A stretch of 64,000 bases of DNA from positions 4,752 through 68,751 of the forward strand of contig CAWCVG010000008.1 in NCBI GenBank assembly GCA_963798935.1, in the 5' to 3' direction. The notes beneath the pieces are model-generated. The model searched no databases and was not told the DNA's origin. It was given only the letters and a program-made list of their open reading frames with translations. This DNA comes from an uncultured Actinomycetes bacterium (GTDB lineage: Bacteria > Actinomycetota > Thermoleophilia > Gaiellales > Gaiellaceae). This document shows, in pieces, positions 19,753-63,533 of this stretch; the first letter of the stretch is position 1; the number at the start of each line of letters is the position of its first letter. The translations under genes were made by a program, and so were the position numbers.

Positions 19753-19821
19753 AGGGGGCTCCTTTCCAGGTGGCCGACGGTTGCCAGACCGGCGCCGCGC
19801 CGGCCGCGTCGAATCATAATG

Positions 19822-20813: not shown

Positions 20814-20822
20814 TCAGAACAC

Positions 20823-20852
20823 AACGCGCCGATGGCGGCCCACCGGCGCGTT
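20823..20852 (+). terminator. stem-loop after the TPR gene (9-bp perfect stem AACGCGCCG/CGGCGCGTT, 12-nt loop), with no U-tract
   Basis: The inverted repeat spans 20823-20831 and 20844-20852, 10 nt after the TGA at 20811-20813. It lies in a convergent intergenic region. Confidence 0.4.
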
Positions 20853-20978
20853 GAACTGGGAGGCTTCACTCCCGGACCGCCCGTTGACGTTGCGGGCGGG
20901 CCTGATGACGCGATTTTCCCGCCGCTCGATTAAAGAACGATCAAAGGAACATGAGAGTTTTCGTCGAGCGGACGAGCG

Positions 20979-21962: not shown

Positions 21963-22083
21963 TCGCTCAAAGTATTTGCGGGGACGGCAAAGCCACGATA
22001 AGCCGAAGGTGAGCGTTTTCTTATGAGCCGACCGCCGTGCTCGGCAGGTTTCTGAGCCTGAAACGCGAAAGGCGCAGGCGGCC

Positions 22084-31035: not shown

Positions 31036-34000
31036 TCAGTCGTACTGGATGACGAGCTGCGGCGGGTTGTCCGTGAGCTTCTCGCGGCTGTGGAAGGCCT
31101 GATCCATGCCGCCGGCGTTCTCGGTCGCGTCGCGGATCAGGAAGCCGTGGTTGAAGCCGCCCGGCGCGTACATCGCCTGGGTCTGGCTCGTGATCGTCCA
31201 CTCGCGGTAGCCGAAGCCCGACGTGGTCGTCACGCCCGTGCCCGACGTGGCGGGCTGGTTGCCCCAGGTCACGAGGTTCTCCGTCCACGCCGCTGCGAGC
31301 GGGATGGCCCGCAGCGTGCGCCCGTCCTTGTACGACGAGGCGTACAGGCGGAGCTTCGCGCTGACGACGTCGCAGCCGGCCGGGAGCGTCGGGAGGGCGA
31401 AGCGGACCAGCGCCCTCGCGTTGCTGCTCGACTTCGAATCGACCTTCAGGACCGAGTCCCCGCCGTTGTTCTTCGCCGCGTCGCTCTGCAGCACCCAGCT
31501 GTCCGCCACCGAGGTCACGGTCACCGAGCCGGCGGTGCAGTTCGAGATGTTGGCCGTCCAGCTGCGTGTCGCGGACGACTGGTCGGGGTTGCCGGCCGCG
31601 TCGATCGCGCGGACGCGGAACGTGTGCGGGCCTGCCGTGAGGCCGCTCAGGTGGCGCGGCGACGAGCACGCGGCCCATGGGGCGTTGTCGAGTGAGCACT
31701 CGAATGTCGCCGCCGGGTCGTCCGCGGAGAACGTGAACGTCTCCGTGCTGCTCGTCGTCGTCCCAGACGGGCCGTTGTTGATCGTCGTCTCCGGCGGGAC
31801 GAGGTCGACCGTCCAGGTGTACGTCGCCGGGCTCGGATCCGCCCTGTCGGCGAAGTCGATCGCCCGCACCTGGAACGTGTGCGAGCCGTGCGCGAGCGTC
31901 GGTGTAGCTCTTCGGGCTCGCGCACGCAGCGAACACGCCCAGGTCGAGCTTGCACTCGTAGCGGAGCTGCGACGCCGGCGTCGAGTCGTCGGTGCCGGTG
32001 AACGTGAAGCTCGGCGAGTGCGTCGGGCTCGGGTTCGTTCGGCTTGGTCAGGATGCCCGTGTCCGGCGGTGCGAGGTCCGGAGCCAGCTCGACCGTCCAC
32101 GAGCGAGCCGCCGGCGTGGCGTCGACGTTGCCGGCCGCGTCCTTCGCCCGGGCCTTCAGCGTGTGTGCGCCCACGCTCAGGCTCGAGTACGTCTTCGGCG
32201 AGGCGCAGGGGCTGAACGCTGCGTCGTCGAGCGAGCACTCGAAGGTCGCGGCGGCCTCGTTCGAGGAGAACGTGAACGCCGCGGTGGTGCTGAGCACGGT
32301 TCCGGACGGGCCGCTCTCGATTGTCGTCGCCGGAGGCCTCGTGTCCGGCGCGGCGAAGCGGATCACGAGCTCCGGCCGGTTCATCGGGGCCTCGCGGCTG
32401 GCGATCTGCTGCTCCGAGCCGCCGTTGTTGTCACCAGCGTCCCTGATCAGGAAGCCGTTGTTCACGCTCGCGTACATCGCGAGCACCTGAGCAGACACGT
32501 TCCACTCGCGCCAGCCCGGCGTCGCGCCCGCACCGAGGCCCGACATCGTCGTCACGGGCTCACCGGCCGTCAGCGGCTGGTTGTCCCACGTGACGCCACC
32601 CTCGCCCCAGGTGCCCGCGACGCGCCACGCCTCGAGAGCACGGTCGGTGATCAGCGAGTTCAGGTGCAGGCGCATCGTCGCCGACTCGACCGCGCAGCCT
32701 GCCGGCAGCGCCGGGAGGTTGAAGCGGACGAGAGAGCGGGCGTTGTTCGCCGGGCCCTTGGAGATGACCTTGATGGTCGAGTCGCCACCCTTGTTGGTGA
32801 GCGGCGCGGCCTGGTCGATCCAGGCGTCCGCGCCGGCGCCGACGGTCTGCTGCGTTCCGCAGCTCATGGCCGAGCCCGAAGCGGCGGCGTAGCTGTAGAC
32901 CATCTGCGGCTGGTTGTCCGACTTCTCCCGGCTGTGGAGCTGCTGCTCGGAGCCGCCGTTGCCCTCGGCCGCGTCGCGGATCAGGAAGCCGTTGCTCGCG
33001 CCGGCCGCCACCTGCGTCGTGACGTCCCAGGAGCGGTGACCCTGCCCGGAGTCGGTGGTGGCCGCCGTGCCGCTCGTCGCCGGCTGGTTGCTCCAGTTGA
33101 CGCCGCTCTCCGTCCAGGTCGCGGCCAGCGGCAGAGCCTGGATCGTCCGGCCGGCGGAGTGCCCGCCCGCGTAGAGGCGCAGCGTCGCCGACTGCAGGAC
33201 GCAGCCGGAGGGCACCGTCGGCGCCGGGAAGCGGACGAGCGCGCGGCTGTCCTCGCCGGACTTCGACATCACCTTCAGCACCGAGTCGCCGCCGTGGTTG
33301 TTCGACGGGCTCTTCAGCTCGATCCAGGCGTCCGCGTCGGCGCCGACCGTCTGCACCGAGGTGCAGTCCGGCGCCACGACCGACCACGTCCACGTGGCGG
33401 GCGTCGGGTCGGCGTTCCCCGCCTGGTCGACCGCGCGGACGTCGAACGAGTACGGAGCGCCCTGAGCCAGTCCTGTGTACGTCCTCGGGCTGGTGCAGGC
33501 CGTGAACTCCGTGTCGCCGTCGAATCGGCACTCGTACCGGAGGTCGGCTACCGCATCGAGGTTGTCGCTGCCGGTGAACGTGAGCGTCGCCGACGAGAGC
33601 GTGCTCGGATTCGACGGCTTCCCGGTGATGGACGTCTCCGGCGGTGTCCCGTCGGTGATCGTCCAGCTGTAGCTGTCCGCCGACGGATCGACGTTGCCCG
33701 CGCCGTCGATCGCCCGCACCTGGAACGTGTGCGGCCCGGACGCGAGCGCCGTGTAGGTCATCGGCGACTCGCAGTCGGCGAACGGCGCGGCGTCGAGCGA
33801 GCACTCGAACGCCGAGTCGATCTCGTTCGCGTTGAACGTGAACGTCGCGCTCGTGGCCGTCGTCGAGCTCTGCGGCGTCGTCGAGGATCGTCGTGTTCGG
33901 CGGCACCGCGACCGTCCACGTGTACTCGACCGGCGTCTCGTCAGCGAGGCCGTACGGCTGGAGCTTCGCGGCGACGGTGAGCGTGTGCTCGCCGTCCTCG

Positions 34001-37000
34001 AGGCCGCTGTACGTCTTCGGGTTCGCGCAGAGCGACTCGCCGAGACCGTCGAGGTCGCAGAAGAACTCGACGTTGGTCTGGTCGGACCGAAACTCGAACG
34101 TTGCCGTCGCGGAGTTGCTCGGATCGGCCGGGAAGGCGACGAGCGTCGTCTCCGGCGGCGCCAGAACCGTCCACTCGTAGCGGGCCGGCGTCTGGTCGAC
34201 GTTGAGCGCGAGGTCGGTCGCCCGCACCTCGAACGTGTGGTCGCCGGGCTCGACTTCGTACTCCGCGGGAGACTCGCACTCGGCGAATGCCACACCGTCG
34301 AGCGAGCACTCGAACGTCGCGCCGGCCTCGGAGGCGAACGTGAAGTTCGCGACCGTGGACGGGCTCGGGTCGGCCGGCTGCGTCAGGATCCTCGTGTCGG
34401 GCGCCTCCGTGTCCGGAATCGACCTCGATCGTCCAGGTGTAGCTCTCGGGCGACTGATCCGCGTTGCCGGCGAGGTCGACGGCGCGCACCTCGAAGGTGT
34501 GCGGGCCGGCCGCGAGGTCCGAGTACTCCATCGGCGATTCGCACTCGGCGAACGGCTCGGCGTCGAGCGTGCACTCGAACGTCGCGTCGAGCTCGCTCGC
34601 CAGAAGCTGAACGTCGCGGTCGTGTCCGAATCGTCGGGTCGGCCGGCCGTCCCTGCAGCGTCGTCTCGGGCGGAACGGTGTCGAGGATGACGTTCCACGT
34701 GTGGCTCACCGGCGCCTCGACGTTCCCATGCGACGTCGGTCGCGCGGACGCGGAACGTGTGCGGGCCGAGCTCGACCGGTGTACTCCGCGGGCGAGGCGC
34801 ACGGCGCGAACGGCTGCGTGTCGAGCGAGCACTCGAAGGTGGCAGTCGGGCTCGTTCGAGACGAAGTGGAAGCTCGCCTCGAGCAGGGTCGTCTCCGCGT
34901 CGGGGCCGTTCAGGATCGTCGTCGTCGGCGCCGTCCGGTCGGCCGCGACCGTCCACGTCCAGCTCGCGGGCGTCTCGTCCACGTTGCCGGCCGCGTCGGT
35001 CGCGCGCGCCTCGAGCGTGTGCGGGCCGTCGGCCAGGCCGGTGTAGACGGTCGGATCCGGGCAGGGCGCGAAGCCGGCGTTGTCGAGCGAGCACTCGAAG
35101 GTCGAGACGGCCTCGTCGCTCTGGATCGGCGAACGTCGCGCTCGTGCTGATGCTCGGGACGGCCGGGTCGGGCCCGAGGACGATCGTCGTCTCCGGCGGG
35201 TCGAGCTCGGTGACCGTCCACGAGTAGAGCGTGATCGGCGGCTCCTCCTGCTCCTCGGGCACGAGCACGCGCACCTCGAAGGTGTGCGGCGCCATCAGCA
35301 GGCCGTTGTACGTCTTCGGCGACGTGCACGGCGACCACTCACCGGCGTCGAGCGAGCACTCGTACGCCGGGTTGGTGGCGTTGGCGGAGAACTCGAACGT
35401 CGCGCTCGTCTCGTCCGTCCGCAGGTCCGGGCCGGACGTGATGTCGACGGGCGGCGCGGCGATGGCGACGTCCCACTCGTACTCGGCCGGCTCCGGGTCG
35501 GCGTGGCCGAGTGCGTCGATCGCGCGGACTGCGAAGGCGTGCTCGCCGTAGATCAGGCCGGTGTAGACCTGCGGCGAGGTGCACGGCACCCACACCTGGT
35601 CGTCGACTGCCTCGTCGAGCGCGCACTCGAAGGTGACGCCCTGCTGGTCGGACGAGAACTCGAACGTCGCCGTCGAGTCCTCGGACGGGTTGGGCGGCGT
35701 CGCGTCGAGGATCGTGTCCGGGTAGGCCGAGACCGTCCACTGGCGCGTGGCCGGCGTCGGGTCGGCGCCGCCCGCGATGTTGACCGCGCGGACGGAGAGC
35801 GTGTACGTGCCCGGCAGGGCGACGGTGACCGAGTACGGCGAGACGCAGCTCTCGTACAGCGCGCCGTCGAGCGAGCACTCGAACGTCGCCGTCGGCTCGT
35901 CGCTCGAGAACGTCGAAGGTGCCTTCGAGCGACCACGTCGGCTGCTTCCGGCGAGGCGGTCGATCGTCGTGTTCGGCGCGACGACCGTCCAGTTGTGCAC
36001 GGCCGGGCTCGAGTCGAGCGTGCCGGCGTCGCTCCGGGCGCGGACGATCGAGCTTGTGCGCTCCGAGCGCCAGGCCCTCGATGATGTAGTTCGACTCGCA
36101 CGAGCCCCAAGTCCCGCCGTCAAGCGAGCACTCGAAGGTCGCCTCGGGGTCGGTCGACGAGAAGCGGAACTCGGCGACCGTGCTGCGGGTCGAGGCGGCG
36201 GGGCCGGAGTCGATCGTCGTGTCCGGCGCCACGACCGTCCAGCTGTGGCTGGCCGGCGTCGCGTCGGGGATGCCGGACGTGCTCGTCGCCACCACCTGCA
36301 GCTCGTAGTTGCCGGGCACGAGGCCCTCGATCACGTGCGGCGACTCGCAGCCGCTCCAGGTGAGGCCGCCGTCGAGCGAGCACTCGTACGTCGCCGTCGG
36401 ATCGTTCGGGTCGCCGGTGGAGAAGAAGAAGGTCGCGGTCGAGCTCGCCGTCGTGGCGGCCGGGCCGGACTCGATCGTCGTCTCCGGAACCACGAGCGTG
36501 GTGCCAGTCGCGAGGGCGAACGGCGACAGGCTGTCGGTCACGCCGCAGACCTCGCCGGCCACTGGATCGCCGGAAGTCGTGATGTCGACCCAGCTGCTGG
36601 TGTCGGCGTCCCAGTGCAGGAGGCGGACCGGCTCGGCCAGCGACCCCGGCACGTAGGTGAGGCAGACGGTGACGGGCGCGGTGTATCCGGCCGTCGTGTC
36701 GATGTCGTAGTACGAGGCGCCGGCCGCGAGGTAGCCGACGGGCAGCGCCGGGCCGCCGGGCACGACGTCCGCGGTGGTGTTGCCCGCCGTCGCGACGCTG
36801 GCGAACGTCACCGTGGCGCTCTGGCCCGCACCCAGGTCGAGGTCGACCGAGACGTTGCTGCCGACGGACGTGTTCGGCGGAGGCGGCGCCTCGACCGTCC
36901 AGCTGTAGGTGTCCGCCACGCCGACGTTGCCGAACTCGTCGATCGCCCTGACCCGGGCGGTGTAGGCGCCCGGCGTCAGGCCGGTGAGCTCGTACGGCGA

Positions 37001-40000
37001 CGTGCACGCGGCCCAGTTCGTGCCGTCGATCGAGCACTCGAACGTCAGGCTCTCGGCCGGCGTGGTGTTGTCGGTGCCGCTGAAGACGATGCTCGCCGTC
37101 GTCTGGAGCGTCGTCGCGGGCGGGCCCGACTCGATCGTCGCCACCGGCGGGATCGCAATCGTCCAGGTGTAGGTCGCCGGCGTCTCCTCGACGAAGCCGT
37201 AGCGGTTCGTCGCCTCGACCTCGAGCACGTGCTCGCCCTCGGCGAGGCCGGTGAGGATGCGCGGCGACGCGCAGTCGGGCACGACGATGCCGTCGAGGAA
37301 GCAGGAGAACGTGGCGGGGCGTGCTCCGGCGCCACCGAGAGCGTGAACGTCGCGGTCGTGCTCTCGTCGTGGCTGGCCGGCGGGCCGCGTGATCGTCGTC
37401 GTCGGCGCGCCCGACGACCGTCCAGGTGTAGGGCCCGGCCGCCGGGCCGGCGTTGCCGGCTCGAGTCGACGGCGCGGACGAGCAGGGTGTGCACGCCGGC
37501 CTCGAGGGTGAGCTCGGCCGTGTTGTCGGGCGGCGCGGCGCACTCCTCGTAGGCTGCTCCGTCGACGCTGCACTCGAACACGGCGTCCGCCTCGTTGCTG
37601 GAGAAGACGAACGACGCAGGCGTGCCGAGCGGGATCTCGGCCGGCGGGCCGGAGACGATGGTCGGGGCCGCGGGCGCGGTCAGGTCGACGATCGTCCACT
37701 CCCAGCGTCGCCACCTCGATCGGCACGAGCAGGTTCGGCTTCTCGGCGTAGATCTCGAAGGTGTGCAGGCCGGCCAGCTCGCCGTCGTTCGCGGCCCGGA
37801 TCTCGGCCTCGGTGTACGTCTTCGGCGAGGTGCACCCGGTGGCCGAGGGCACGGAGCCGTCGAGCGAGCAGAAGAGGACCATGTCCGTCGGATCCGACTC
37901 CTCGACGGTGAAGCTGAACGTCGGCAGTCGTGGCCTCGGTCTCGCCGCCCGACTCCGCGGTCGGCCCGCTCGTGATGGTCACGACCGGCGGTGTCAGGTC
38001 GCCGATCTCCCACGCAGAACGTGGCCGGCGTCGGGTCGCGCGCGCCGCCGGAGCCGATCGCCGTGACCTCGAAGTCGTGGTCGCCGGGCAGCAGGCCGCT
38101 GTACGTCACCGGCGAGGTGCACGGCTGCGGGGTGGCCTCGTCGAGCGAGCACTCGAAGGTGGCGCCGGCCTGGTTCGCCGAGAACGTGAACGTCGCGCTC
38201 GTGCTCTCGGTCTGGAAGTCCGGTGCCGGGATTGCGGGCTCGACGAGGTCGATCGTCGTCTCGGGCGCGCGGCGAGATCGTCCAGGTGTGGACGGCGGGC
38301 TCTCCGGCGCCGAGGCCGTCGATCGCGCGGACGCGGAAGACGTGCGTCCCCGCCGCGAGGTCGGTGTACTCGGCCGGCGAGAGCGCAGGAGCCGAAGCCC
38401 GAGTCGTCGAGCGAGCACTCGAAGCTGGCGCCGGCCTCGTTGGACGAGAAGTGCAGGCTCGCCGACGTGCTGTTGGTCGGGTCCGCCGGGCCGTCGTCGA
38501 TGGTCGTGTCGGGCGCGAGGTCGATCGTCCACGCGCTCGCCGCCGGCGTCGGGTCGACGTTGCCGGCCGCGTCGGTCGAGCGGACCGAGAACGTGTGGTC
38601 GCCCGCGGCGAGGCCGGTGTACGCGGCGGGCGAGGTGCACGCCGCGTACGCCGCGTCGTCGAGCGAGCACTCGTAGGCCACGCCCGGCTCCGACGTGAAC
38701 TCGAAGCGACGCGCTCGTGCGAGCGGATCGAGACGGCCGGGCCGACGTGATGGTCGTCTCCGGCGCGACGTGCTCGACCGTCCAGCGTGTAGCTGACCGG
38801 GCTCGGGTCGACGTTGCCGGCCGCGTCGACTGCGCGCACCGACGAACGTGTGCGGGCCGTCGAGCAGGCCGTGCAGGTCCTTCGGCGACGTCGCACGGCC
38901 CAGCGCGCCGGCGTCGAGGCGGCACTGGAAGGTCGCGCCGCGCCTCGGACGAGAACGTCGAAGCCGTGCGGTGCCGCTGTTGCGTCGGCTCGGCCGGCGG
39001 CCGCGTCGATCGACGTCTCGGGCGCCGTCGCGGTCGACCGTCCAGGTGTGGACGATCGCCGGAGTCTCGTCGACGTTGCCCGACGGCGTCGGTCGCGCGC
39101 ACCGAGAAGGTGTGCGGGCCGTCCGCGAGGCCGATGTAGCCGCTGCGGCGACGCGCACTGGACGTACGGGCCGCCGTCGAGCGCGCACTCGAAGGTCGCG
39201 CCGGCCTCGGCAGGAGAACGTGAAGTCGGCGCTCGTGCTGTTGCGTCGCCGTCGGCCGGCCGTGCACCGAGCGTCGTCTCCGGCGCCGTCGTGTCGGGCG
39301 GGCCGATCGTCCAGGTGTAGCGTCGCCGGCGTCGGGTCGGCTGTGCCGTCCTCGTCGGTGGCGACGACCGAGAACTGGTGGACGCCGACGCCAGGCCGGT
39401 GTACTGCGCGGCGAGGTGCAGGCCGCGAAGCGCGCCGCCGTCGAGCGAGCACGCGAAGGTCGAGCCCGCCTCGGTGGAGAAGAAGCCGAAGCTGGCGCTC
39501 GTGCTCGATCGTCGGGTCGTCCGGGCCGCCCGAGATCGTCGTGTCGGGCGCCGTGCCCTCGACGACCGTCCAGGTCCAGCTCGCCGGCGTCGGGTCGACG
39601 TTGCCGTTGATGTCGATCAGCCTGCGACCACGAACGTGTGCGTGCCGAGGCCGATGCGCCGGGAAGCCGAGCTCGGTGTCCGGGAACATCGCCGGCGACA
39701 GGCACTCGCCGAGCTCGACGCCGTCGAGGGAGCACTCGAACGACCGAGCCGGGCTCGCTGGAGGTGAACGCGAAGCGCGCCGGTCGTGCGCGCCGTCGGG
39801 CTGCTCGGGCCGGCGATCGATCGCCGTGTCGGGCGCGTTCGCGACCGTCGAAGCCCACTCGGCCGGGAGCTCGCCGGCGATGCCGAACTCGTTGACCGCG
39901 CGGACCTGGAACAGGTACTCGCCGTCGGGCAGGTTCGTGTAGCGTGTGCGGCGACGAGCACGGCTCGAACAGGTTGTTCAGGAACGGGTTCGGCGTGATC

Positions 40001-52000: not shown

Positions 52001-55000
52001 TGAAGAAGCACCGGCGACGGCACGAGACGCACGGTCGCCCGAATTCGGCCGCCGTCGTAGCGAGCACTCGAACGTCGAGCCGGGCTGGTCGGCCGCGAAC
52101 GCGAAGACCGCGTGTCTCGCTCGTTGCTGACGAGACGCCCTCGGCGTTCGAGCGTGCCGGGCCGGCGTGATCGTCGTCACGGCGGCGGCACGACCGTGAA
52201 CGTGCGGACCTCGGCCGGCGTCGGGTCGACGTTCAGCGCGAGGTCGATCGCCGGATGCGAAGGTGTGCTGGCCCGGCCTCGAGGCCCTCGCATGGACTCG
52301 GGCGACTCGCACGGCTCCCACGGGTCGACGTCGAGCTGGCACTCGAACGTCGAGCTCGAGCATCCGGCGTCGCGTTGTCGGTGCCGTGAAGGCGACGTCC
52401 AGGAACTCGAACTCGGACTCCGGGATGACCGGGATCTCGGATCGGCGGGTTCTCGAGCCGATCTCGCCGGCGGCCGGTGAGTGATCGCCGGTGCTGGGCG
52501 GCGTCGTGTCCGCCGTCATCGTCCACGTGTAGGTCGGCCGGCGTCGGGTCGACGTTGCCCTCGAAGTTCGGGTTCGGCTGCTCGGGTTCTCGAACGCGGC
52601 TCGGCCATGTCGATCGCGCGCACCTCGAACGTGTGCTGGCCCGGCGCCATCTGCGGGTCCTCGTAGGTGTAGAGGTCGAGCAGGTTGAACGGGCTCGTGC
52701 ACTCCTCCCAGTCGAGCTCGTTGGTGCTGTCGATGCGGCACTCGAACGTGAGCAGCTCGCGGCGGCGTCAGGTCGTCGGTGCCGGTGAACTCGAAGATCG
52801 TCGAGCTCGAGCTCGGGCGCGGGCGCACGCTCGATCGTCAGGTCTCCGGCGGCGTGATGTCGCTGCGCGTCGACGATCTCCCACTCGTACTCGGACGGCC
52901 TCGACCTGCTCGACGCCGTCGGCGTCGGTGCGCGATGACGCGCAGCATGTGGTCGCCGGGCGAGCAGGCTCTCGTACGTGACCGGCGGCGTGCACGGCAC
53001 GAACGGCTCGAGGTCGAGCGAGCACTCGAAGGTCGCGTCGGCGACGTTGGCCTCGAAGTCGATGATCGCGGTCGTGCTCAGCGTCTCGCCGCCGGTGGCC
53101 GGGTCGAGCGGCGTCTCGGGCGGCGTGAAGCCCGTCGACTCGGGATGCGGCCCGGGCAGGAAGATCGTGTGCGACGCCGAGCAGGCTCCAGGTGTAGGTC
53201 GCCGGCTCGCCGACGTTGCCCTCGAAGTCGATCGCGCGCACGAGAACGTGTGCGGGCCGACCTCGGTCTCGTCGAGGCCCCACTCGAAGCCGCCGCGGTT
53301 CATGTGCTGCGCAGCCTCGAACCCGCACGGCTCGTACGGCCAGAAGTCGACCTTGCACTCGAAGGTGACGTCGGGCTCGTTGGAGTGGAACGTGAAGATG
53401 CGCGTCCGTGCAGCCACGTCTCGGCCTGCGGCTTCAGGTCGATGATCGCCTCGGGCGGCGTCGCCGGCCGGCAGCGGCTGGTACGCCCACATGAACTTCG
53501 CGGGCGTCGAGTCGGCCAGGCCGGCTCCGTTCAGGTCGATCGCGCGCACCTCGAAGGTGTGGACGCCGGGCGAGAGGTTGAGGATCTCCGCCGGGTACTC
53601 GCAGTCCTCCCACGCGAGCGGGTCGTGTGCTGTCGATGCGGCACTCGAACACGAGCTCGTGGATGGGCGTGACGTTGTCGCTGCCCATGTAGGTGAAGCT
53701 CGCGTTCCGGCTGTCGCTGGGGTTGGCCGGATGGTCGACGATCCACGTCTCCGGCTCGCCCGGAACGGCCCCGGTCGTGCAGATGACGCTGTAGCACTGC
53801 TCGAACTCGGCGTTGCCGGCGGCGAAGTTGCCGCCGCGGTCGATCGCGCCGATGGCGGCGTAGATGCCCCAGCCGCCGTTCACGCGGGCGCTGTTGTCCT
53901 TGACGATGTGGCCGGCGCCCTCGATGCGAGATGCCGTCGCCGCCGTTGCGCGTCGGCGTTGTTGCCCTCGAGCCAGTTGCCCTGGCCGAGCGGGCGCGGA
54001 GTCGGCGATCTCGATGCCCTCGCCGCCGTTCTCGTGCGCCGTCGTTGTCGATGACCTCGTTCCGGAACGACAGCTCGCCGATCTCGATGCCGATGCCGAG
54101 CGTGCCGCTGGCGTTGTTGCCCTCGATGCGGTTGTCGTACGACTCGCCGAGCTCGATGCCGCTCTTGGCGCCGCGGAGGTCGTTGGCGCTTGATGAGCGT
54201 TGTCGTGCGCCAGCTCCATCGAGACGCCGGCCGCGAGGACGTCGCGGATGCGGTTGTGGATGACGGCGACGCTCGACGACTCGACGATCAGGACGCCGCC
54301 GGCGCCTTCCTCGATCGTGTTGTCCTCGATGTGGACCCGGTTCGTCGGCAGGAGCTCCTCGCCGAGCGTGATGCCGCCGCCGTGGTTCTCGGTCATCGTG
54401 TTGTTGACGATGCGGTGGTCGGAGCCGCCGATGGAGCCGATGGCGTTACCGCCCGAGGTGGCGATCTCGTTCTCCTCGATGCGCGCGCCTGTCGCGTGCT
54501 CGAGGTAGATGCCGTCCTGGGAGCTCAGGGCGAACTCGTTGTGGCGGATGATCGCGTTCTTCGTGCCGCTGTACATGGCGATGCCGTAGCCGTTCGAGAC
54601 CAGCGTGTTCCGCTCGATGATGTTGCCCAGGCCGTTCTGGTCGGCGTCGGCGAGCCCGATGCCGCCCTCCTGGTTCAGCTCCAGCCGCAGGTCGCGCACG
54701 ATGTTCGACCCCGTGCCCGGGTTGAGCATGACGCCGTAGTCGAACTCGTGGACCGTCGCCGTTCATGATCGTGACGTTGTCGAAGCCCATGTTCGTGATG
54801 CCGCCGCCCAGGCCGACGCCGTCGATCGTGTGCCCGTTCAGGTCGAGCGTGATGCTGCCGGTACCGATGACGAGAGCGTTGTCCGGGCACTCGAGCAGGT
54901 CGTTCATCACCTTGACGCTCTCGAGCAGCACCTCGCCGCAGACGACCTCGCGGGCGACCGGAGCCGGGCGCACGCGCCAGATGTGGGTCGCCGTCGCCTC

Positions 55001-58000
55001 GCCGGCGCCGCTCGACGCCCGCACCGTGAACGTGTGGTTGCCGACGGCCAGCGGGCCCGGGTACTCCTTCGGCGAGCGCGCAGGGCGCGAACGCGGCGGC
55101 GTCGAGCTTGCACTCGAACGACGCGCCTGCCGCCGCCGCGGCGAACTCGAACGTCGCGCCCGTCTGGACGGTCGTCGCGTCCGGTGCCGAGGTGATGCTC
55201 ACGGCCGCCGGTGCCAGCTCGGGCGGATTGACCCACCACTCGTATGTCGGCGGACGTCAGGTCGATGTTCCCGGCCGCGTCCACGGCGCGGACCGCGAAC
55301 GTGTGGGTGCCGACCGGCAGATCGAGGGCCGCGGGGGACGAGCACGGGCCCCACGCCTCCTCGTCGAGCTTGCATTGGAACGTGACGGTCGGGCTCGCGT
55401 TGTCGCTGCCGTCGAAGCGGAAGCGCTGAACGGCGGTCGAGCTCGGGTCGAGCGGCGTCTCCAGCAGCTGCGTGCCGGGCGCGATGATGTCGCTGATCGG
55501 CACGTCCACGCCGGTGCAGACGATCGTGAAGCACTGGAGCGGCTTGAGGGTGATCGGGTCGAGCGGTCCGTGGTTGCCCTGTCCCTTGTTGCCACCGCCG
55601 TCCGTGTTGTGGCGGCCGTTCGAGCCTTCGCTCGCCCAGATGCCCCAGCCGCCGTTGTCGTTGGCGAGGTTCGCCTTGATGACGTGGCTGACCTTGGAGA
55701 CGTAGATGCCGTAGCCCTTGTTGTTGTTGACCGTGTTGCCCTCGATCCACGACCCCGAGCCGCCGGTCGTCTCGTCGCCGATGTAGATGCCGTCGCCGTC
55801 GTTGTGCGACGACTCGTTCTTCAGAAGCGTGTTGCTCAGCGAGAGCGACGCGACCGAGATGCCGGTGCTGCCGGAGTCGCTGGCGTCGTTGGCCTCGAGC
55901 CGGTTGCCGCTCGAGGCGACCAGGTCGATGCCGCCCTTGTTGGCGCTGACGTCGTTCCCGAGCAGGACGTTGTCGTCCGCCCGGTAGAGCGAGATGCCCT
56001 CGGCGCTGCCGAAGTGGGCGACGTTGTCGAGCAGCTGGTTCCCGTCCGACTCGAGGATCTCGAGCGCAGGCGCCGCTGGGCTCGAGGATGGTGTTCTTCT
56101 CGACGCGGTTGTTGTTCGACTGCTCGCCGACCGTGCCGGTACGCGTGATGTCGATCTTCACGCCCTCGGCGTTCTCGGAGAGGTCGTTCGAGACGACGGT
56201 GTTGTTGTTCGAGCCCTCCATCAGGACGGCCGAGCCGCTCGAGCCGAAGATCGTGTTGCGCTCGAGCCTGTTCGAGTGCGACCGCTCGAGCATGACGCCT
56301 TCGGAGGGGTTGACGTTGATCTCGTTCTCGAGGATCAGCGTCTCCTTCGTCTTGTACGCGAGCCCAGATGCCGATGTCGTTCGCGACGATGGTGTTGAAG
56401 CGGATGATGTTGCCGAGGACCTTCGAGTCGAACGACGAGGGCGGCGGCGGCGGCAGCGGCAGCAGCATGTCCCTCGGGTGCGGCACGTGGCCGAGCCCGA
56501 TGCCCGCCTCCTGGCTCTGCTGGATCTCGAGCTGCTCGACGATGTTCTTCTCGGTCTCGGGGTTCAGCATGACGCCCCAGTCGAACTCGCGGATCTTGCC
56601 GTTCTTGATCGTGACGTTGTCGTAGCCGTCGTTGCGGATGCCGGCGGCGACTCCCTTGCCGTCGATCGTGTGGCCGTCGAGGTCGATCGTGATGCCGTTC
56701 GCGCCGACGACGAGGCCGTCCCACAGACAGTCCGCGAGGTCGTTGCGGACCTTGATGCTCGTCGTGATGACCTGGCCGCAGAAGATGAAGCCGGGGACGG
56801 GCGCCGAGCCGACGTTCCACGAGAACTTCGCCGGCGACGGGTCGATGTTGCCGGTCATGTCGATCGCCTGGACCTCGAACTTGCGGATGCCGATCGGAAT
56901 GCCGCTGTACTCCTCGGGCGACGAGCACGGCTCCCAGTGGTTATAGGTCGCCGGGGCGTCGAGCTTGCACTCGAACGCGCCGTCGAGTCCTCGCTCGAGA
57001 ACGTGAAGGTCGCGTTCGTGAGCACCGTATTCGGGTCCGGGCCGGAATCGATCGCCGTGTCCGGAGGCGTCACGTCGGTCTGAGGCTGGTTGATCGTCCA
57101 CGTGCGCACGGCCGGCGTCGGGTCGACGTTGCCCTTCAGGTCGACAGCGGCGACCTCGAACGTGTGCGAGCCGGGGGCGAGGTCGGAGTACGTCTTCGGC
57201 GTCGTGCAGTCCCCGAAGGCGACGGGCTGACCGTCGAGCCGGCACTCGAACGTGAGGTACGGCCCCGGAATCAGGTTGTCGCTCCCGGTGAAGCGGAACG
57301 TAGCCTCGGTGCTGTCGACGGCGCCCATCGGGCCGGCCGCGATGAACGTGTCGGGCGGGAGGATGTCGTCGCCCGCGAGCTCGTCCGGGAGGGTGATGTC
57401 GATCTCCCACTCCCAGCGCGCCGGCGTCATGTCCTGGTTCTCGACGTTGTCGAGCGCGCGCACCTCGAGGTGGTGCGGGCCCTGCGCGAGCATCGGGATG
57501 TGGAACGGCGACGCGCACTCGATCCAGATGCCGAAATCGATCGTGTCGACGTCGGGCGGCTCGTTCGGATGCGGCGGCTCGGGCTCGGGATCGGGCGGGA
57601 TCGGCGGATCCGGCGGCGCGTCGATCCGGCACTCGTACGACATCGCGGTCGCCGGCGTGGTGTCGTCGGTGCCGGTGAACGTGAAGGTCGCCGACGTCTG
57701 CGCTGATCTGGCCACCTGACACCGCGCCGCCCGGGCCGGTGAGGAACTGCGTGTCGGGCGCCACGACGTCCTCGGGCGTCAGCGGCGGGGCGCCGCCTCC
57801 CTGACACTCGAGGCCGGCGCACTGCTCGTCGAGGGGGTCGACGGGCTCGCCGGGGCCGCGGCCGTTGCCGCTCGCCTTGTTGACCAACGGATGGCCCAGT
57901 GGAGGCGCATGGTTGGTGTGCGTGTACGGCTCGCCCGGGCAGCTCGGGGTTCTCGCCGATCTCGATGCCGATGCCGGCGTTGTTGTGGGCGGTGTTGTTC

Positions 58001-61000
58001 CTGACCGTGTGGCCGCCGTCGGCGACCGCAATGCCGGTCTCGCCTGTTCTCGTTGGTCGTGTTGCCCTCGATGAGGGCGCCGCCGACCGGCTGGCCGAGG
58101 GTGTTGAAGATCCCGCTCTCGACCGAGATGCCGGCGCCGCCCGTCAGGTTGGCGACGTTGTCCCTGACGACGATGTTGGCGCCGTTCCCGATCTCGAAGC
58201 CGCTCTGCAGCGAATGGGACGCGTTGTTCCCCTCGATGAGGACGTTGTTCGACTCGCCCGTGTCGACGCCGCTCGGGTTGTAGCGCACGTCGTTGCCGAT
58301 CACGACCGTGTCGTTGCCCTGGGTGACCACGACGCCGCCGTCCGAGCTTCCGTGCGCGAGGTTGTCGATCACGCGCGTTCCGGTCGAGTCCTGGATGTAG
58401 ACGCCCGCGTCGCCGTTCCGGACCATCTCGTTGCGCTCGACGAGGTTCCGGTGCGAGCTCGGCCGTGATGACGAGCGCAGCGTCGCCGAAGTCGCTGAAG
58501 TAGTTGTCGACGAACTCGTTCTCGTTCGAGAACTCGAGGTTCGCGCCGGCGTCACTGTCGATGTTGGGGTTGAAGGACACGCCGAGCATCTCGTTGCCCT
58601 CGAAGCGGTTGCGGTTGGCCTCGATCAGCTGGAAGCCGACGCCGCCGTTCGAGAAGAACTCGTTGTCCTTGACCAGCGTGCCCTCGGTGCCGTTGATGAG
58701 CGAGAGCGCCGCCTCGCCGTTGCTCGTGAAGACGTTGTTGCGGATCGTGTTGCCGTTCCGCCCGTCGTCGGCGTCGTTCAGCTCGATGCCGGCGAGGATG
58801 TGGCCCTCGAGCCTCAGGTCGTGGACGACGTTGTAGGTCGTGCCGCCGGTGAGCATGACGCCGTAGCCGAAGTTCTTGACGGTGCCGTTGCGGATGACGA
58901 CGTTCGCTGTGGCCGCTGTTCCGGATGCCGGAGATGAGGCCGTTCTCCTGGCCCGCGATGAACACGGCGTTGCTCGAGACCGTGTGGCCGCCGAGGTCGA
59001 GCACGATGTTCGGCGCGCCGATGATGAGGCCCTCGCCGATGCAGCCCGTCACGTCGTCCGCGAGCAGCGTGCTCTCGGTGATGACCTGGCCGCACTGCGC
59101 CTCGACCGGCGGTCCCGTCGGATCGGCCGGCGGCGGCGGCACCGTCGTGTCGTCGTCCGCGTAGCGGAGGACGAGCTCGGGCAGGGTGCCCGGCTCCGGC
59201 GGCGGCTCCTGGAACGTCTCGCGGCTGGTGAAGCTCTGCTCGGCGCCGTTTTCGAGGTCGCTCTCGTGCGAGTCACGGATCTGCCAGCCGTAGCTGACGC
59301 CGGCCGCGAGCATCTCCTCGACGTGCGAGAGGACGTTCCACTCCATATAGCCATCGGTCTGCGGCGGCACCACCGCGACCGGATCGTCGCTGCTCGTGTC
59401 CGGCTGGTTGGGCCACGTCCCCGGCTGGCTCATCCAGGTGAGCGTGCTCTCCTTGAACGGGCCGGCCAGCGGGGTGGCCAGGATCGTCCGTCCCTCGTCG
59501 CCTCCCTCGGGACCGTCGTTGAAGAGGCGCAGCGTCGCCGACTCGAGCGTGCAGTTGGCTGCGTCCGTGGGCAGGTCGAAGCGGAAGAGCGAGCGCGCGT
59601 TCTGGCCGATGGTCGGCACCGGCGGGACGGCGTCGGGATCGCCGGTCGCATCGGAGGCGACGCTCAGCTCCGTCTCGAAGAGGTAGTTCTCCCACGGCAC
59701 GACCTCGTTCACCCAGCCGTCGGCGGTCGCCGTGAGGGTGATGTTGGCGGTGTCGCAGTTGGTCCCCTGAGCGACCGTCCACGAGAAGCGGGCCGGCGTC
59801 GGGTCGACGAGCTCGGAGCCGCCGCTTTCCGCCCGCACCTCGAGCGTGTGCACGCCGCTCGCCAGGTTGCTGAAGATCATCGGGTTCGTGCACTCGAGCC
59901 AGAGGTCGGGATCCTTCGTGTCGAGCCGGCACTCGTACTCCATGAACATCGGCGGCGTCATCGGGTCGATCGCCGAGAAGGTGAAAGTGGCCGACGCGGC
60001 TGTTCGTGACCGCCGGCGGGTGCTCGACGATGATCGTCTCGGGCGGCTCCTCGGCCGGCCAGATGTCCCTGATCGCCGGCGTCGGGTCGACGTTGTCGTT
60101 CCGGTCGACCGCGCGGACCTCGAAGCGCGTGAGACCCTCCTCGCCGACGAGGATCGACTCCCACGGGCTGTTGCAGCCGAGCCACTGGAGCTCCGGCGGC
60201 ACCGGATCCCACGGCGCGATGACCTCCGGCTCTTCGACGAGGTCGACGTCGTAGAGCCGGCACTCGTAGTTGAGGTCCTCCGTCGCGGTCTGGTTGTCGC
60301 TCCCCGTGAACCGCCACTCCATGGTCTCCTCGGTGTTCTGGATCGGGCCCGAGAGGTACTCGGTGTCCGGCGGGGTGGTCGTCGGGCGGCGGGGGGTCGC
60401 CGACGAACTCGAAGGCGCCCATGTCGCAGCGGCCGTTCTGCGGGCGCGGGATGCCGCGGGCGTCGGTGTCGGGGCACGGCGTCACGGCGGCGTCGATCGC
60501 AAGGCTGCCGTAGTTGAGGCGGTGCGTCATCACGGAACCGCCGTTGTCGGCGAGCGCGTCGACGGTGAACGTCGGGCTGAAGCGGTCACGCATCGGCGCC
60601 AGGCCCGAGTCGCTGTTGCCGGCGACGGCGAGGAAGCACTTCGTCTTCTCGGGCAGGAGCGCCTCGCCCGTGGCCGGGTCTCCGGGGTACTGCTTCCCGC
60701 CGGTGTCCATGTTGCCGCCCTCGGACGTGACGTAGAAGTCGCAGCTGCCGCCTTCGACGCTGCCGCCGACGATCGAGTTCCGCACGACGACCGCTTCGTT
60801 GGCCTTGGGCGGGACGTCCGGCACGAAGTCCGACTCGGCGACGCCGATGCCGCCGCCGCGCGGAGCGGAGTTCCGCCAGACGGTCAGGTTGATCAGCTTG
60901 AGCTCGCCGTCGGCGTCGTGGAAGATGCCGCCGCCGCCGGTGGCCGCGACGTTGCCCGAGATCGTCGTGTTCTCGATCAGCGAGTCGCCGTCGGCGAGGC

Positions 61001-63155
61001 TGAAGATGCCGCCGCCGTGGCCGCCTTCCTCGATGTCGCCGTCCTCGCCGATGACCGGGTGGCGCGCGACGTTGCGGAGGAAGAGCGACCTCCGCACGAT
61101 GAGGTCGTTGTCGGGCGCGTTCGCCAGGCCGCCGCCGCTGACGGCGCTGTTCCGCTCGACCGTCGAATCGAGGATGAAGAACGGGTTGCTCGACGAGTTG
61201 TAGATGCCGCCGCCGTTGAGGACCGCGTAGTTGTTCACGACGTGCAGCCGCTCGAAGGTGACGCGGAAGCCGCTGTTCTCGATGCCGCCGCCGTCCGCGC
61301 CGGCACGGTTGTTGCGGATGACGCTGTCGCTGATCTTGACGTCGCCGGAGTTGTCGATGCTGATGCCGCCGCCCTCTTCGCTGGCGTCGTTGCCCTCGAA
61401 CGTGGAGCCCGTGACGGTGACGGGGCCGCCCTCCGTGTAGAGGCCGCCGCCGCCCGCGATGTTGACGCCCGGGTCATTCGGGTCGACGGGCTCCGGCACT
61501 TCCCCCGGGTCGAGCGGCTCGGGCGGCTCCGGCACGCCGCCCTTGTTGTTCTTGAAGATCGAGTCCTGGATCGTGACGAGCCGCTCGCTGCCCGTCCACG
61601 CGCCGCCGCCCTCGCCGTTCGACTCGTTCGCCGTCGAACGTGACGCGCGTCACGGTCATGCTGGCGCGGCCCCCGTTGGCGAGGCCGCCGCCCTCGTCGC
61701 CCGCCTTGTTGCCGGCGAAGAGGACGTCGGTCAGGACGAGGTGGCCCTCGCCGTCGCTGACCATGCCCCCGCCGGAGCCGAGCGTCTGGATGGCCGGCGG
61801 CTCCGTGCCAGGAGGCGGAGGCGGCGGGTCCGGGGCTGCCGCTGCGTTGCCCACGATCGTCGACCCCGTGATGGTGATCTTCGAGCGCAGGCCGATCGAG
61901 GTCGCCGCGCCGGCGCTGTAGATACCGCCGCCGTCATGCGCCCGGTTGCCGGACACGCGTGCTGTCCTTGATCGTCAGCTTGCCGCCGCTGGAGTAGACG
62001 GCGCCGCCGGTCGCCTCGGTCGTGTTGTCGGTGAACTCCGAGTTCTCGATGATCAGGTTGCCGTCGCCGAGGTTCGCGACTGCGCCGCCGTCGTGCTCGG
62101 AGTAGTTGTCGCGCAGCCTCGAGTTGCCGATCCAGATCGTGCCGACGCCGTCGAACTGACCCTCGTTGGCGATCGGGGTCGAGTCCGGCGGCAGGACGCC
62201 CGGCGCCGGGATCATCTCCTCCGGGTCGAGGGGATCCGGGATCATCGGGCCCGGGTTGTCGATGATGTCCGAATTGAAGATCGAGATGTAGCCGGCCGAT
62301 TGGTTGTTGATCGCCGAGCCGCCGCCGCCCGAGCTGTTGTGCTTGAAGAGCGAGTCGATGATCTCGATGCGCCCGGGCTGCGGCATCGGGATCGGATCCA
62401 TCGGGAGCCAGTCGTAGTCGAACGGATCGGCGTTGTTGATCGCGCCCGCTCCGCCGGGCTGGTTCCTCAGCACCTGGACGTCTCCTGAGGGTGATGACGC
62501 CGGACGACCAGTTCTGGATCGCGGCGCCGTCGCCGTCGACGGAACCCTCGCGAAGCGTCACGTCTTCGAACGTGACGTTGCGCGCCTGCGGATGGATCTC
62601 GAAGAGTCGATCCATACCGACGGCGTCGGCGTTGTTCTCCGGCGGCGTGCCGCCGTCGATGATCGTCCCGGCGGCGGCGTTGCCGCGGATCGTGACCGGA
62701 TCCATGATGTCGAAGTCGCCGCTGGCGGGGGTGTCGTCGTTGACCACCGGGATCCCGAGCGCGAACACGCCCGGAAGCCCGAACGTGATCGTGTCGGCGC
62801 CGGGATGTGCGTTCGCTTCAAGGATCGCGGCGCGGAGCGTGCACGTGTTTCCCGAGAACGCGCCGGTGCTGCAGGTGCCGTCGCCGGGATTCATGTCTGC
62901 TTGATCGGCAGTGCTGTTGACCGTGTAGGTCACGGGAACGGCTGCGAACGCATTCGCCGAGAGCGCGACCGCCGCCACGCTCAACGCGATCGTTGCGATC
63001 GCGAGCCGAACCAGGACGCGGCGCGCGCGGTGGGGGAGGAGCGCGCTCGGCCGGGTCTCGCCCAGGTCGGAGGTCGTGCGGTCGTTGACGTCCTCGCGTA
63101 GAGGCCGTGCGAGGGCGGGGAGGTCCCGAGCGCGCAGGCTCAGGGAGACGGCCAT
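31036..63155 (-). CDS. giant modular secreted protein, gene A (about 32 kb, on the order of 10,700 codons if contiguous), interrupted by many dozens of single-nt frame breaks as assembled
   Basis: The N-terminus lies in ORF 61731..63173 (...RARRVLVRLAIATIALSVAAVALSANAFA / AVPVTYTVNSTADQ...). Recognisable domain sequence continues through minus-strand ORFs including 61934..62473, 61474..61956, 59958..61535, 59273..60322, 58552..60477, 55836..58856, 53434..54729, 52233..53549, 35339..37882, 31647..34295 and 31036..32238. The gene ends ...NPPQLVIQYD*. I saw no internal stop followed by a start and signal peptide. Start is uncertain: ATG 63155 or TTG 63173. Confidence 0.7.
31039..31548 (-). other. 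gene A C-terminal DNRLRE-like module
   Basis: Sequence is ISNCTAGSVTVTSVADSWVLQSDAAKNNGGDSVLKVDSKSSSNARALVRFALPTLPAGCDVVSAKLRLYASSYKDGRTLRAIPLAAAWTENLVTWGNQPAT...GYREWTITSQTQAMYAPGGFNHGFLIRDATENAGGMDQAFHSREKLTDNPPQLVIQYD*. Confidence 0.72.
32355..33365 (-). other. gene A: two tandem internal DNRLRE-like modules (both intact)
   Basis: First module: DCTSVQTVGADADAWIELKSPSNNHGGDSVLKVMSKSGEDSRALVRFPAPTVPSGCVLQSATLRLYAGGHSAGRTIQALPLAATWTESGVNWSNQPAT...NGFLIRDAAEGNGGSEQQLHSREKSDNQPQMVYSY. Second module: SCGTQQTVGAGADAWIDQAAPLTNKGGDSTIKVISKGPANNARSLVRFNLPALPAGCAVESATMRLHL...GVTWDNQPLT...NNGFLIRDAGDNNGGSEQQIASREAPMNRPELVIRF. Ig-like repeats resume in the same ORF afterwards. Confidence 0.72.
36506..36886 (-). 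other. gene A insert domain, copy 1 (intact reference copy, about 127 aa, unassigned family)
   Basis: Sequence is PPPPNTSVGSNVSVDLDLGAGQSATVTFASVATAGNTTADVVPGGPALPVGYLAAGASYYDIDTTAGYTAPVTVCLTYVPGSLAEPVRLLHWDADTSSWVDITTSGDPVAGEVCGVTDSLSPFALA, within ORF 35339..37882. Confidence 0.6.
42275..42660 (-). other. gene A insert domain, copy 2 (unassigned family)
   Basis: Sequence is VAAPPPPNTPAGTDVIVQLTSPG... then ...RLLHHDGTEWVDVTLTADEVAGTVCGDAESLSPFAIVAG, read across frame breaks. Confidence 0.5.
50410..50795 (-). other. gene A insert domain, copy 3 (unassigned family)
   Basis: It starts ...APNTPVGNNV.... It contains ...YFDIHTTAEYGEPV... and ...ARLLEYDGSEWTDITLRND...IAGLVCAEPEDFGLFALAA, read across frame breaks. 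Confidence 0.5.
53776..54940 (-). other. gene A NosD-like beta-helix module 3
   Basis: Header is VCGEVLLESVKVMNDLLECPDNALVIGTGSITLDLNGHTIDGVGLGGGITNMGFDNVTIMNG. It continues GVMLNPGTGSNIVRDLRLELNQEGGIGLADADQNGLGNIIERNTLVSNGYGIAMYSGTKNAIIRHNEFALSSQDGIYLEHATGARIEENEIATSGGNAIGSIGGSDHRIVNNTMTENHGGGITLG.... Confidence 0.72.
55520..56780 (-). other. gene A NosD-like beta-helix module 2
   Basis: Header is FCGQVITTSIKVRNDLADCLWDGLVVGANGITIDLDGHTIDGKGVAAGIRNDGYDNVTIKNGKIREFDWGVMLNPETEKNIVEQLEI. It continues ...MLERSHSNRLERNTIFGSSGSAVLMEGSNNNTVVSNDLSENAEGVKIDI.... Frame breaks occur inside. Confidence 0.7.
57950..59097 (-). other. gene A right-handed parallel beta-helix (NosD-like) module 1
   Basis: Header is QCGQVITESTLLADDVTGCIGEGLIIGAPNIVLDLGGHTVSS...GIRNSGH. 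It continues ...GVMLTGGTTYNVVHDLRLEGHILAGIELNDADDGRNGNTIRNNVFTSNGEAALSLINGTEGTLVKDNEFFSNGGVGFQLIEANRNRFEGNEM...VVIGNDVRYNPSGVDTGESNNVLIEGNNASHSLQSGFEIGNGANIVVRDNV. Frame breaks occur inside. Confidence 0.7.
59155..59760 (-). other. gene A internal DNRLRE-like module (divergent, longer)
   Basis: Sequence is NCDTANITLTATADGWVNEVVPWENYLFETELSVASD...GQNARSLFRFDLPTDAANCTLESATLRLFNDGPEGGDEGRTILATPLAGPFKESTLTWMSQPGTW...GYMEWNVLSHVEEMLAAGVSYGWQIRDSHESDLENGAEQSFTSRETFQEPPPEPGTLPELVLRY. Confidence 0.6.
60400..60770 (-). other. gene A choice-of-anchor-Q-like region
   Basis: Sequence is VVRNSIVGGSVEGGSCDFYVTSEGGNMDTGG...DALADNGGSVMTHRLNYGSLAIDAAVTPCPDTDARGIPRPQNGRCDMGAFEF. Confidence 0.6.
60771..62648 (-). 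repeat. gene A Pmp-like beta-helix repeats with proline-rich inserts
   Basis: Examples: GGAVANLGDGNLIIENSEFTDNTTEATGGAVYSSGGKLTIKDS; GGGIYSAGAATSIGLRSKITITGSTIVGN; GGGLYTEGGPVTVTGSTFEGNDASEEGGGISIDNSGDVKISDSVIRNNRAGADGGGIENSG...GGGIYNSS...GGGLANAP...GGGIFSLADGDSLIENTTISGNVAATGGGGIFHD. Inserts are PDPPPPPPGTEPP and PEPPEPLDPGEVPEPVDPNDPG. Confidence 0.7.
62649..63155 (-). other. gene A N-terminal extension, signal peptide and CSLREA-type domain
   Basis: Sequence is VTYTVNSTADQADMNPGDGTCSTGAFSGNTCTLRAAILEANAHPGADTITFGLPGVFALGIPVVNDDTPASGDFDIMDPVTIRGNAAAGTIIDGG. The predicted cleavage site is ANAFA/AV, near 62942. Confidence 0.7.
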
Positions 63156-63533
63156 GGCTGCCGCGACCAGCAAGAGCGAGGCCGCATTCGCGGCCTCGGG
63201 GTTCAGCAGGAGGAAGGCGTAGAGCGCAAAGGCAGCGCCGCCGGCGAGCAGGGTCCGCCGGCGGCGAGCACACGTGCTCGTGTCCTCGCCGCCGGGTAGG
63301 GGGAGGACCCGATCGACGTTCGGCCGGGCGCGTCAGCCCCGGCCTCCAGAGACCTGTTAAACGTCGAATGTCGCTTAGGTCGCAACCAAAACTCCCCGCG
63401 CCAGTGTGGAAGCGGCGAATCAGGGTTCCGTCAAACCACGGTGAGAGTTCGTTTATCTGTGTCTTTCTCATGGTCCCGCTCCCTGGCCGCGCATCCGGTC
63501 GAGAGCCGGTGCCGCAGGTGCGGGCGGCGAGGC

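Follow-up and report, generated by a model that had tools for sequence, protein, structure and literature searches.

The locus considered here raises the question of whether some 32 kb of minus-strand sequence encode a single giant secreted protein, as had been proposed from the letters alone, or whether the region holds several genes, a decaying gene, or a gene lengthened by faulty assembly. It lies in a window of 64,000 nucleotides of contig CAWCVG010000008.1 (assembly GCA_963798935.1), from an uncultured Actinomycetes bacterium of the family Gaiellaceae, and all positions below refer to this window. The minus strand from 31 to 63 kb consists of overlapping open stretches in changing frames, the longest of them 1,257 codons, and long spurious open reading frames (ORFs) are plentiful because the window has a G+C content of about 70%. 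We consider it very probable that positions 63155-31036 of the minus strand form a single gene, hereafter gene A, for a giant Sec-exported fibre protein of a soil actinobacterium with high G+C content, that the breaks in its reading frame are errors of the assembly consensus, and that the real gene is intact.

The evidence that carries this interpretation comes from intact homologues. P0121, a protein of 5,633 residues encoded on a JGI contig and named "CSLREA domain-containing protein", has 33 Ig-like repeats and was found as a non-representative member of the cluster of the database match. A tblastn comparison of P0121 with the window gave 1006 high-scoring segment pairs, all on the minus strand, which cover positions 22084-63173 except for 338 nt; residues 12-3400 tile positions 63023-52800 in order, with frame jumps at single-base junctions such as 62481/62479 and 58906/58904. 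The frameshift-tolerant tiling that the original prediction had named as a check is thus colinear across frames. Two closer relatives behave in the same way. A scan of species-representative genomes found the orthologue in L002 (metagenome-assembled genome MFD02360.bin.2.70, uncultured Actinomycetes, a 1.15-Mb contig), which has 86.5% DNA identity, is colinear with the first 13 kb of gene A and is one open frame of at least 4,303 codons, as far as the end of the locus compared. L032, a 91-kb JGI contig to which a search with the gene downstream of gene B led, carries an orthologue annotated as one gene of 8,587 residues. Over the last 9.3 kb, the part of it that is visible, this orthologue has no stop and aligns end to end with positions 40367-31035 of the window at 86.6% identity. 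Because the intact orthologues and P0121 are all colinear with the region, we read it as one unit, in agreement with the original prediction. A codon-usage Viterbi path through the three minus frames has to change frame 116 times on its way from 63.2 to 31.0 kb, and its translation is a modular protein. Comparison with the two orthologues, which spans 22.4 of the 32 kb and lies outside the segment 50.3-40.4 kb, yields 187 gaps whose length is not a multiple of three, so that the frame breaks outnumber what could be seen when the region was first read.

Both ends of gene A can be placed. The translation ends in PPQLVIQYD with the stop codon at 31036-31038, directly after a terminal CBM96 module, and this matches the end point of the orthologues and of a downstream paralogue, gene B. 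At the other end, the ATG at 63155, which is kept in L002, is a likelier start than the TTG at 63173. The proposal of a product of about 10,700 residues beginning at 63173 therefore holds for the giant unit and for the stop, and the start is better moved inward, giving about 10,650 residues. The sequence of the N-terminus, with a long charged region preceding its hydrophobic core, suggests a Sec signal peptide or signal anchor. In the whole translation from 63.3 to 22.1 kb, strongly hydrophobic segments and CSLREA motifs occur just twice each, at the starts of genes A and B; gene A therefore conceals no internal start, and the earlier statement that no internal stop is followed by a start codon and signal peptide holds.

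The modules of gene A were located by scoring Pfam and NCBIfam profiles on raw, uncorrected in-frame segments against curated cut-offs, and the segments pass these cut-offs. The signal peptide, CSLREA domain, PMP-type repeats, choice-of-anchor Q domain, three NosD-like beta-helices, four DNRLRE modules and three insert domains of the original prediction were all found in the places given for them (Table 1). For the Ig-like repeats we made a profile of 85 positions from unbroken copies. Applied to the raw frames, it matches 143 times in the three minus frames and never on the plus strand. These matches correspond to about 81 modules in gene A, close to the 80 estimated earlier from length. Of these modules, 38 are spread over two or three frames, and at each change of frame the profile coordinate resumes exactly, as expected from the claim that the homologous repeat continues in another frame at each break. 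An AlphaFold2 model of the repeat is a beta-sandwich with a predicted local distance difference test score (pLDDT) of 97, and the closest structures in a Foldseek search are the Y_Y_Y domain of BT4663, PKD domains and SiiE BIg domains. The insert domain, present in three copies in gene A and one in P0121, is an all-beta unit of about 130 residues with the pattern ...YYD..TTA.Y..PV.VCL.Y...LL..D....W.D.T...; a Pfam search with it returned no family and its AlphaFold model is of low confidence (pLDDT 60). At a higher level the array contains a super-repeat of about 5-6 kb in about three copies between 36000 and 54000 on the minus strand (self-similarity offsets of 4.7-6.0 kb). Its copies are about 65-74% identical, and the maximum self-similarity over at least 200 nt is 78% DNA identity.

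Table 1. Features of gene A and its neighbours in the 64,000-nt window, with the observations that define them.
Feature	Position	Strand	Evidence
Gene A	31036..63155	-	Conceptual ORF of ~10,650 codons, split by well over 100 frame-disrupting indels; tblastn tiling and orthologue alignments
N-terminus	62943..63155	-	ATG, long charged n-region, hydrophobic core RVLVRLAIATIALSVAAVA, cleavage-like site ANAFA/AVP; ATG and sequence kept in L002
CSLREA N-terminal domain	62487..62940	-	Motif CTLRAAILEANA at 62843; TIGR04214 30.3 bits (cut-off 25) in raw frame 62487-63320
PMP-type (GGxI/FxxN) repeat beta-helix region	60561..62486	-	PF02415 44.8 bits (cut-off 20.6), PF13229 47.9 bits; colinear with P0121 198-820
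Choice-of-anchor Q domain	60405..60560	-	NF041518 72.7 bits (cut-off 25)
Two Ig-like repeats before CBM96 module 1	60379-59773	-	Repeat profile
CBM96/DNRLRE module 1	59206..59742	-	PF24517 57 bits, NF033679 58.6 bits
Parallel beta-helix (NosD-like) module 1	57900..59100	-	Colinear with P0121 1290-1690; Ig profile silent 59773-57706
Parallel beta-helix (NosD-like) module 2	55483..56810	-	PF05048 64.5 bits (cut-off 23.6) and TIGR03804 64.1 bits (cut-off 19.45), on 55246-56067
Parallel beta-helix (NosD-like) module 3	53758..54970	-	tblastn to P0121 2612-2958; gap in Ig matches
Main Ig-like (Y_Y_Y/PKD-like) array	33378..53757	-	~70 repeats of 85 residues with 2 conserved Cys; profile matches
Insert domain copy 1	50324..50802	-	Frame-broken, ~130 residues; gap in repeat array; fragments align to copy 3
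Insert domain copy 2	42262..42663	-	Frame-broken; gap in repeat array
Insert domain copy 3	36494..36889	-	Unbroken; no Pfam family; AlphaFold2 pLDDT 60
CBM96/DNRLRE modules 2 and 3, tandem	32361..33353	-	PF24517 185 bits in two stretches, NF033679 173 bits
CBM96/DNRLRE module 4, C-terminal	31042..31524	-	PF24517 103 bits; C-terminus of same type as in L032, P0121 and gene B
Gene B	22084..30852	-	~2,920 codons; ATG 30852, stop 22084; paralogue of gene A, directly downstream
OmpR-type response regulator	63322..64000	-	Upstream of gene A, partial at window edge; Pfam
SurA/PrsA-like parvulin peptidyl-prolyl isomerase (PPIase)	20979..21962	-	Downstream; syntenic in L032 10001-10984 and L033 10001-10969

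The frame breaks have a distinct spectrum. Against L002 there are 118 frame-disrupting gaps, namely 91 insertions and 27 deletions in the window (78 and 23 of them, respectively, of a single nucleotide), and against L032 there are 69, with 55 insertions and 14 deletions (48 and 9 of a single nucleotide). The 48 single-nucleotide insertions relative to L032 consist of 25 C, 20 G, 3 T and no A, and 41 of them have no identical adjacent base. The density of indels varies strongly along the contig. From 63 to 54 kb there is about one per 370 nt and from 54.2 to 50.3 kb about one per 42 nt; between 40 and 37 kb each kilobase has 9-18 of them, and between 37 and 31 kb it has 1-6. The error-dense zone extends from about 25.5 kb to at least 63.6 kb and is worst at 37-54 kb. 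It includes the response-regulator gene, where a 1-nt insertion of G at 63585 breaks the C-terminus and its removal restores the ending LRKKLGPDMIQTVRGVGYRLSG followed by the stop, as in L002; gene B is frame-broken above about 25.5 kb (last break near 25510) and clean at 25509-22084. The zone thus tracks contig position and not gene identity, because the response-regulator gene is affected and the last 3.4 kb of gene B, which consist of repeats of the type found in gene A, are clean. By contrast with this zone, the first 25 kb of the window contain full-length genes, including a DEAD helicase, and a single break near 16250 on the minus strand, in the SBP_bac_5 gene 14837-16430, where ...YVVTVRP resumes as GVKWSDGKPLTAADV in another frame.

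Judged from this sequence evidence, the breaks in gene A are almost certainly assembly consensus errors and not decay, programmed frameshifting or separate genes, and the deposited sequence therefore does not encode the protein. The nearest relatives are long-read genomes of the Microflora Danica (MFD) project, which were assembled from Nanopore reads only, with Flye and one round of Medaka polishing, and by analogy with them the source assembly is most likely also a long-read, Nanopore-type metagenome-assembled genome. Long-read metagenome assemblies are documented to contain indel frameshifts and to collapse related strains into one consensus. The dense, insertion-biased errors may have arisen from very low local coverage or from mixed reads of divergent strains or paralogues. 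The phase of the insertions relative to codons is uneven near wobble positions (59/28/39, p=0.003), a weak bias that gap placement could produce, and this excess is weakly compatible with such a read mixture. Several other causes were considered and rejected. Collapsed or unpolishable identical repeats do not fit, as the repeat copies are just 60-80% identical and a non-repetitive gene is hit too; homopolymer slippage does not fit, with runs of at least four near 1.1% of the sites against a background of 2.8%; and a methylation-type motif such as GATC is not indicated, as no strong k-mer enrichment was seen at the break sites.

Among the rival explanations, that of a true pseudogene, in which the frameshifts are real in the organism and the gene is decaying, could appeal to the well over 100 frame breaks in the deposited sequence and to the homologues in two further long-read contigs that are also fragmented, and yet we regard it as very unlikely. 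About 190 natural frameshifts should bring nonsense codons, deletions and a flattened codon-position bias, and none of these is seen. In the approximately 7,100 gap-free codons comparable with L002 and L032 there is no in-frame stop, against an overall expectation of 5-36 under unselected substitution: when substitution without selection was simulated at one-tenth of the divergence seen (11.7%), about 5 stops arose and none of 200 runs was free of stops, and at half of that divergence the mean was about 19. The differences from the orthologues, 796 of them synonymous and 1,175 non-synonymous, lie preferentially at third codon positions, also in the stretches with most indels, and the orthologue comparison shows no large deletions. 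Natural decay of bacterial genes is generally deletion-biased and associated with repeats, whereas the indels here are biased toward insertion of single G or C outside homopolymers, and the adjoining response-regulator gene has the same type of lesion. The close orthologues are intact, and the frame-broken divergent orthologue at 9009-22039 on the plus strand of the Flye-style ENA contig L001 has 5 frame changes, all +1, at positions that differ from those in the window; conserved programmed frameshift sites and an inherited pseudogene are therefore both excluded. The latter comparison also bears on the idea of several adjacent genes, or of programmed frameshifting, in place of one ordinary ORF. 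That gene callers divide the region into many ORFs, and that nearly all shifts in its best-resolved parts are +1, would accord with this idea; the breaks, however, fall inside domains whose profile coordinates continue, share no common motif at the junctions and are not conserved in position between orthologues, which read through in one frame, and no internal signal peptide or CSLREA motif precedes a would-be second gene. We hold it to be the least probable of all the alternatives, with hardly any chance of being correct.

A more serious alternative, although still an unlikely one in our judgement, accepts a real gene with error-induced breaks and supposes that an extra super-repeat or a chimeric join was introduced in the error-dense middle, so that the true product would be nearer 8,600 residues. 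Several observations count against our own interpretation, and some of them speak for this alternative. The difference between the 8,587 residues in L032 and the approximately 10,650 here, about 2,070 residues, is roughly one super-repeat of 5-6 kb; the 9.9 kb at 50.3-40.4 kb, which fall outside the orthologue comparison, coincide with the worst-quality sequence; and none of the best 150 representatives reaches 10,000 residues, the longest having 6,225. The diagnosis of consensus errors draws on the assembled consensus only, with the sequencing platform taken from relatives; an insertion-biased spectrum outside homopolymers is atypical of textbook Nanopore consensus error, and one indel per 42 nt at 54.2-50.3 kb exceeds what low coverage by accurate reads would predict. 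As to function, what we propose below is read entirely from domain types, family scans identified no catalytic residues and no lyase or hydrolase family in gene A, a sequence search with a beta-helix module against the PDB gave no match, and gene A has no LPXTG motif, SLH domain or C-terminal transmembrane segment that would serve as a cell anchor, its C-terminus being a CBM96 module without a hydrophobic tail. Against an over-long assembly, the identity between super-repeat copies is too low (at most 78%) and therefore none of them is a falsely duplicated noisy copy of another; both ends of the gene are colinear with independent assemblies without rearrangement; the Ig-like modules are continuous on one strand through 50.3-40.4 kb; and variation in repeat number is normal among such proteins, as the 33 copies in P0121 illustrate. 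A bolder form of our interpretation is possible but doubtful, namely that the ORF of about 10,650 codons is intact and is the longest known member of its family, with a super-repeat of about 2,000 residues beyond its nearest orthologue, and that the collapse of the consensus reflects hot spots of strain-level diversity at this locus and its paralogue, where reads of co-existing variants would have corrupted the consensus. The excess of wobble-adjacent insertions and the indel density are compatible with such diversity and do not prove it.

The intact single-frame gene that we favour belongs to a family that is already present in databases. The original prediction did not recognise the combined architecture as that of a described protein; its implied novelty does not hold, given that P0121 and representatives of 4,194-6,225 residues with the same N-terminal domain (among the best 150), named CSLREA or choice-of-anchor Q proteins, are public. 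The matches listed by the protein homologue search were at most about 1.73 times as long as the query (729 residues for a query of 421, and 1,737 for a query of 1,000), so that short queries do not bring up giant relatives. The CSLREA / choice-of-anchor Q proteins of metagenomes of Actinomycetota and Chloroflexota have the same N-terminus, module order and CBM96 C-terminus as gene A, and the colinear identity is 45-62% with P0121 and about 75-86% with L032 and L002. With matches to TIGR04214 and NF041518 and colinear homology to named intact members, gene A is, by sequence, an unusually long new member of this uncharacterised family, of which no experimentally characterised member was found in the databases and literature searched. 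It differs from the other members in its number of Ig-like repeats (about 81, whereas P0121 has 33), in exceeding the L032 orthologue by about 2,070 residues, and in having a tandem paralogue that is absent in L032. The suggestion that it is among the larger bacterial genes is correct in that the gene is large, but it is far below the published giants, since curated bacterial proteins reach 85,804 residues and more than 30,000 are reported in Actinobacteria; its size is notable, not exceptional.

Comparison with better-studied systems is informative in both directions. Fibrillar adhesins (PMC8286594) share with gene A a very long secreted stalk of tandem Ig-like domains together with domains of binding type, and an adhesin of Mobiluncus has 7,651 residues and 51 Ig-like domains (PMC10619420). 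Of the features of fibrillar adhesins, the Ig-like stalk is present, the predicted ligand modules are the four CBM96 and three beta-helix modules, and the anchor is absent; unlike those adhesins, gene A has no LPXTG or other C-terminal anchor, carries CBM96 modules both internally and at the C-terminus, and has three large beta-helices embedded in it. The giant adhesins of the type I secretion/RTX class (SiiE, LapA, MpIBP) are of similar size class and presumed stalk role, and the repeat of gene A resembles the SiiE BIg domain with a TM-score of about 0.67. Gene A differs from them by an N-terminal signal of Sec type instead of a C-terminal type I signal and by its Gram-positive-type host, and scans of gene A matched no RTX family, the Ca_tandemer profile scoring 17-27 bits against a cut-off of 50. 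The likeness to chlamydial Pmp autotransporters goes no further than the PMP repeat motif, for which the Pfam cut-off is exceeded; gene A has no autotransporter beta-barrel, and the families matched by its C-terminal segments are CBM96 and Ig-like ones only. Gene A shares PbH1 repeats with proteins of the NosD and AlgG type, but it belongs to neither the NosD subfamily nor the AlgG equivalog, as the beta-helix modules fail the subfamily cut-offs (TIGR04247, NosD/AlgG-type, 22 bits against 300; NF038177, 15 against 700). Finally, the four modules matching PF24517 at 57-185 bits relate gene A to the founding case of CBM96, which binds alginate and is attached to an alginate lyase (PMC9971899). 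Gene A differs from it in having no identified lyase or hydrolase family, and ligand binding is predicted here from domain type.

The neighbourhood adds a second member of the family. Gene B has its own signal peptide, CSLREA domain, PMP repeats, DNRLRE modules and 19 Ig-like repeats; it had no place in the original prediction, which concerned positions 31036-63173. The ENA contig L033 is arranged like the window, with a gene A-like gene of 5,399 residues, a gene B-like gene of 2,534 residues and then the PPIase, whereas in L032 gene B is absent and the PPIase directly follows the orthologue of gene A. A histidine kinase and an OmpR-type response regulator lie directly upstream in the same orientation in L001 (6298-8554) and L002 (6013-8408), and 63322-64000 at the edge of the window corresponds to them. 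Their position suggests dedicated regulation of the giant gene, and it is plausible from the sequence family that the PPIase is an extracytoplasmic foldase for the giant proteins. Elsewhere in the window, positions 9647-19752 hold a sugar-utilisation cluster with a beta-glucosidase-type gene of glycoside hydrolase family 1 (GH1), an Opp-type ABC transporter (ATPase, two permeases, substrate-binding protein), a GH5-like gene and a LacI regulator, and a BTAD/AAA/TPR (SARP-like) regulator is located at 4014-7331. In L001 the gene caller placed junk ORFs on the opposite strand over a 5-kb stretch of the giant gene.

From the module order a working model of the protein can be proposed. After its signal peptide, the chain would begin with a beta-helical head composed of the CSLREA domain, the PMP repeats and the choice-of-anchor Q domain, continue with the three NosD-like parallel beta-helices, which alternate with Ig-like repeats and one CBM96 module, and then extend into a stalk where the three inserts sit among about 70 more Ig-like repeats containing disulfides, closed by a tail with the other three CBM96 modules. 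It would be exported via Sec, and the stalk built by its Ig-like repeats would measure a few hundred nanometres. Its beta-helix and CBM96 modules may bind, and possibly modify, an acidic polysaccharide, so that the protein would act as an adhesin-like fibre that binds a matrix or substrate. The upstream two-component system probably controls the gene, and the downstream PrsA/SurA-like foldase probably assists the protein. Export, stalk geometry, ligand and regulation are all inferred from the predicted modules and neighbouring genes, and the cautious suggestion of a carbohydrate-active adhesin in the original prediction is reasonable.

The locus is an example of a 32-kb gene that has been deposited as dozens of short "proteins" because the metagenome-assembled genome is locally of low quality; fragments from the window itself are deposited as separate entries, such as P0001 with 525 residues. 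Giant genes of the CSLREA / choice-of-anchor Q family seem to be repeatedly fragmented in long-read metagenome assemblies, and fragmentation by consensus errors means that giant genes are undercounted and protein databases hold spurious fragments. The indel spectrum, the number of stops and the codon-position bias, taken against an intact orthologue, can distinguish such an artefact from a real pseudogene without the reads. The L032 orthologue, shorter by about one unit, suggests that the copy number of the super-repeat changes between close relatives. The family to which gene A belongs combines beta-helix, CBM96 and Ig-like modules in uncharacterised giant secreted proteins and seems to be common in soil Actinomycetota; the conservation of a two-component system and a PrsA/SurA-like foldase next to its genes suggests that export is regulated. 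It is a reasonable target for the study of how soil bacteria attach to or remodel polysaccharide matrices.

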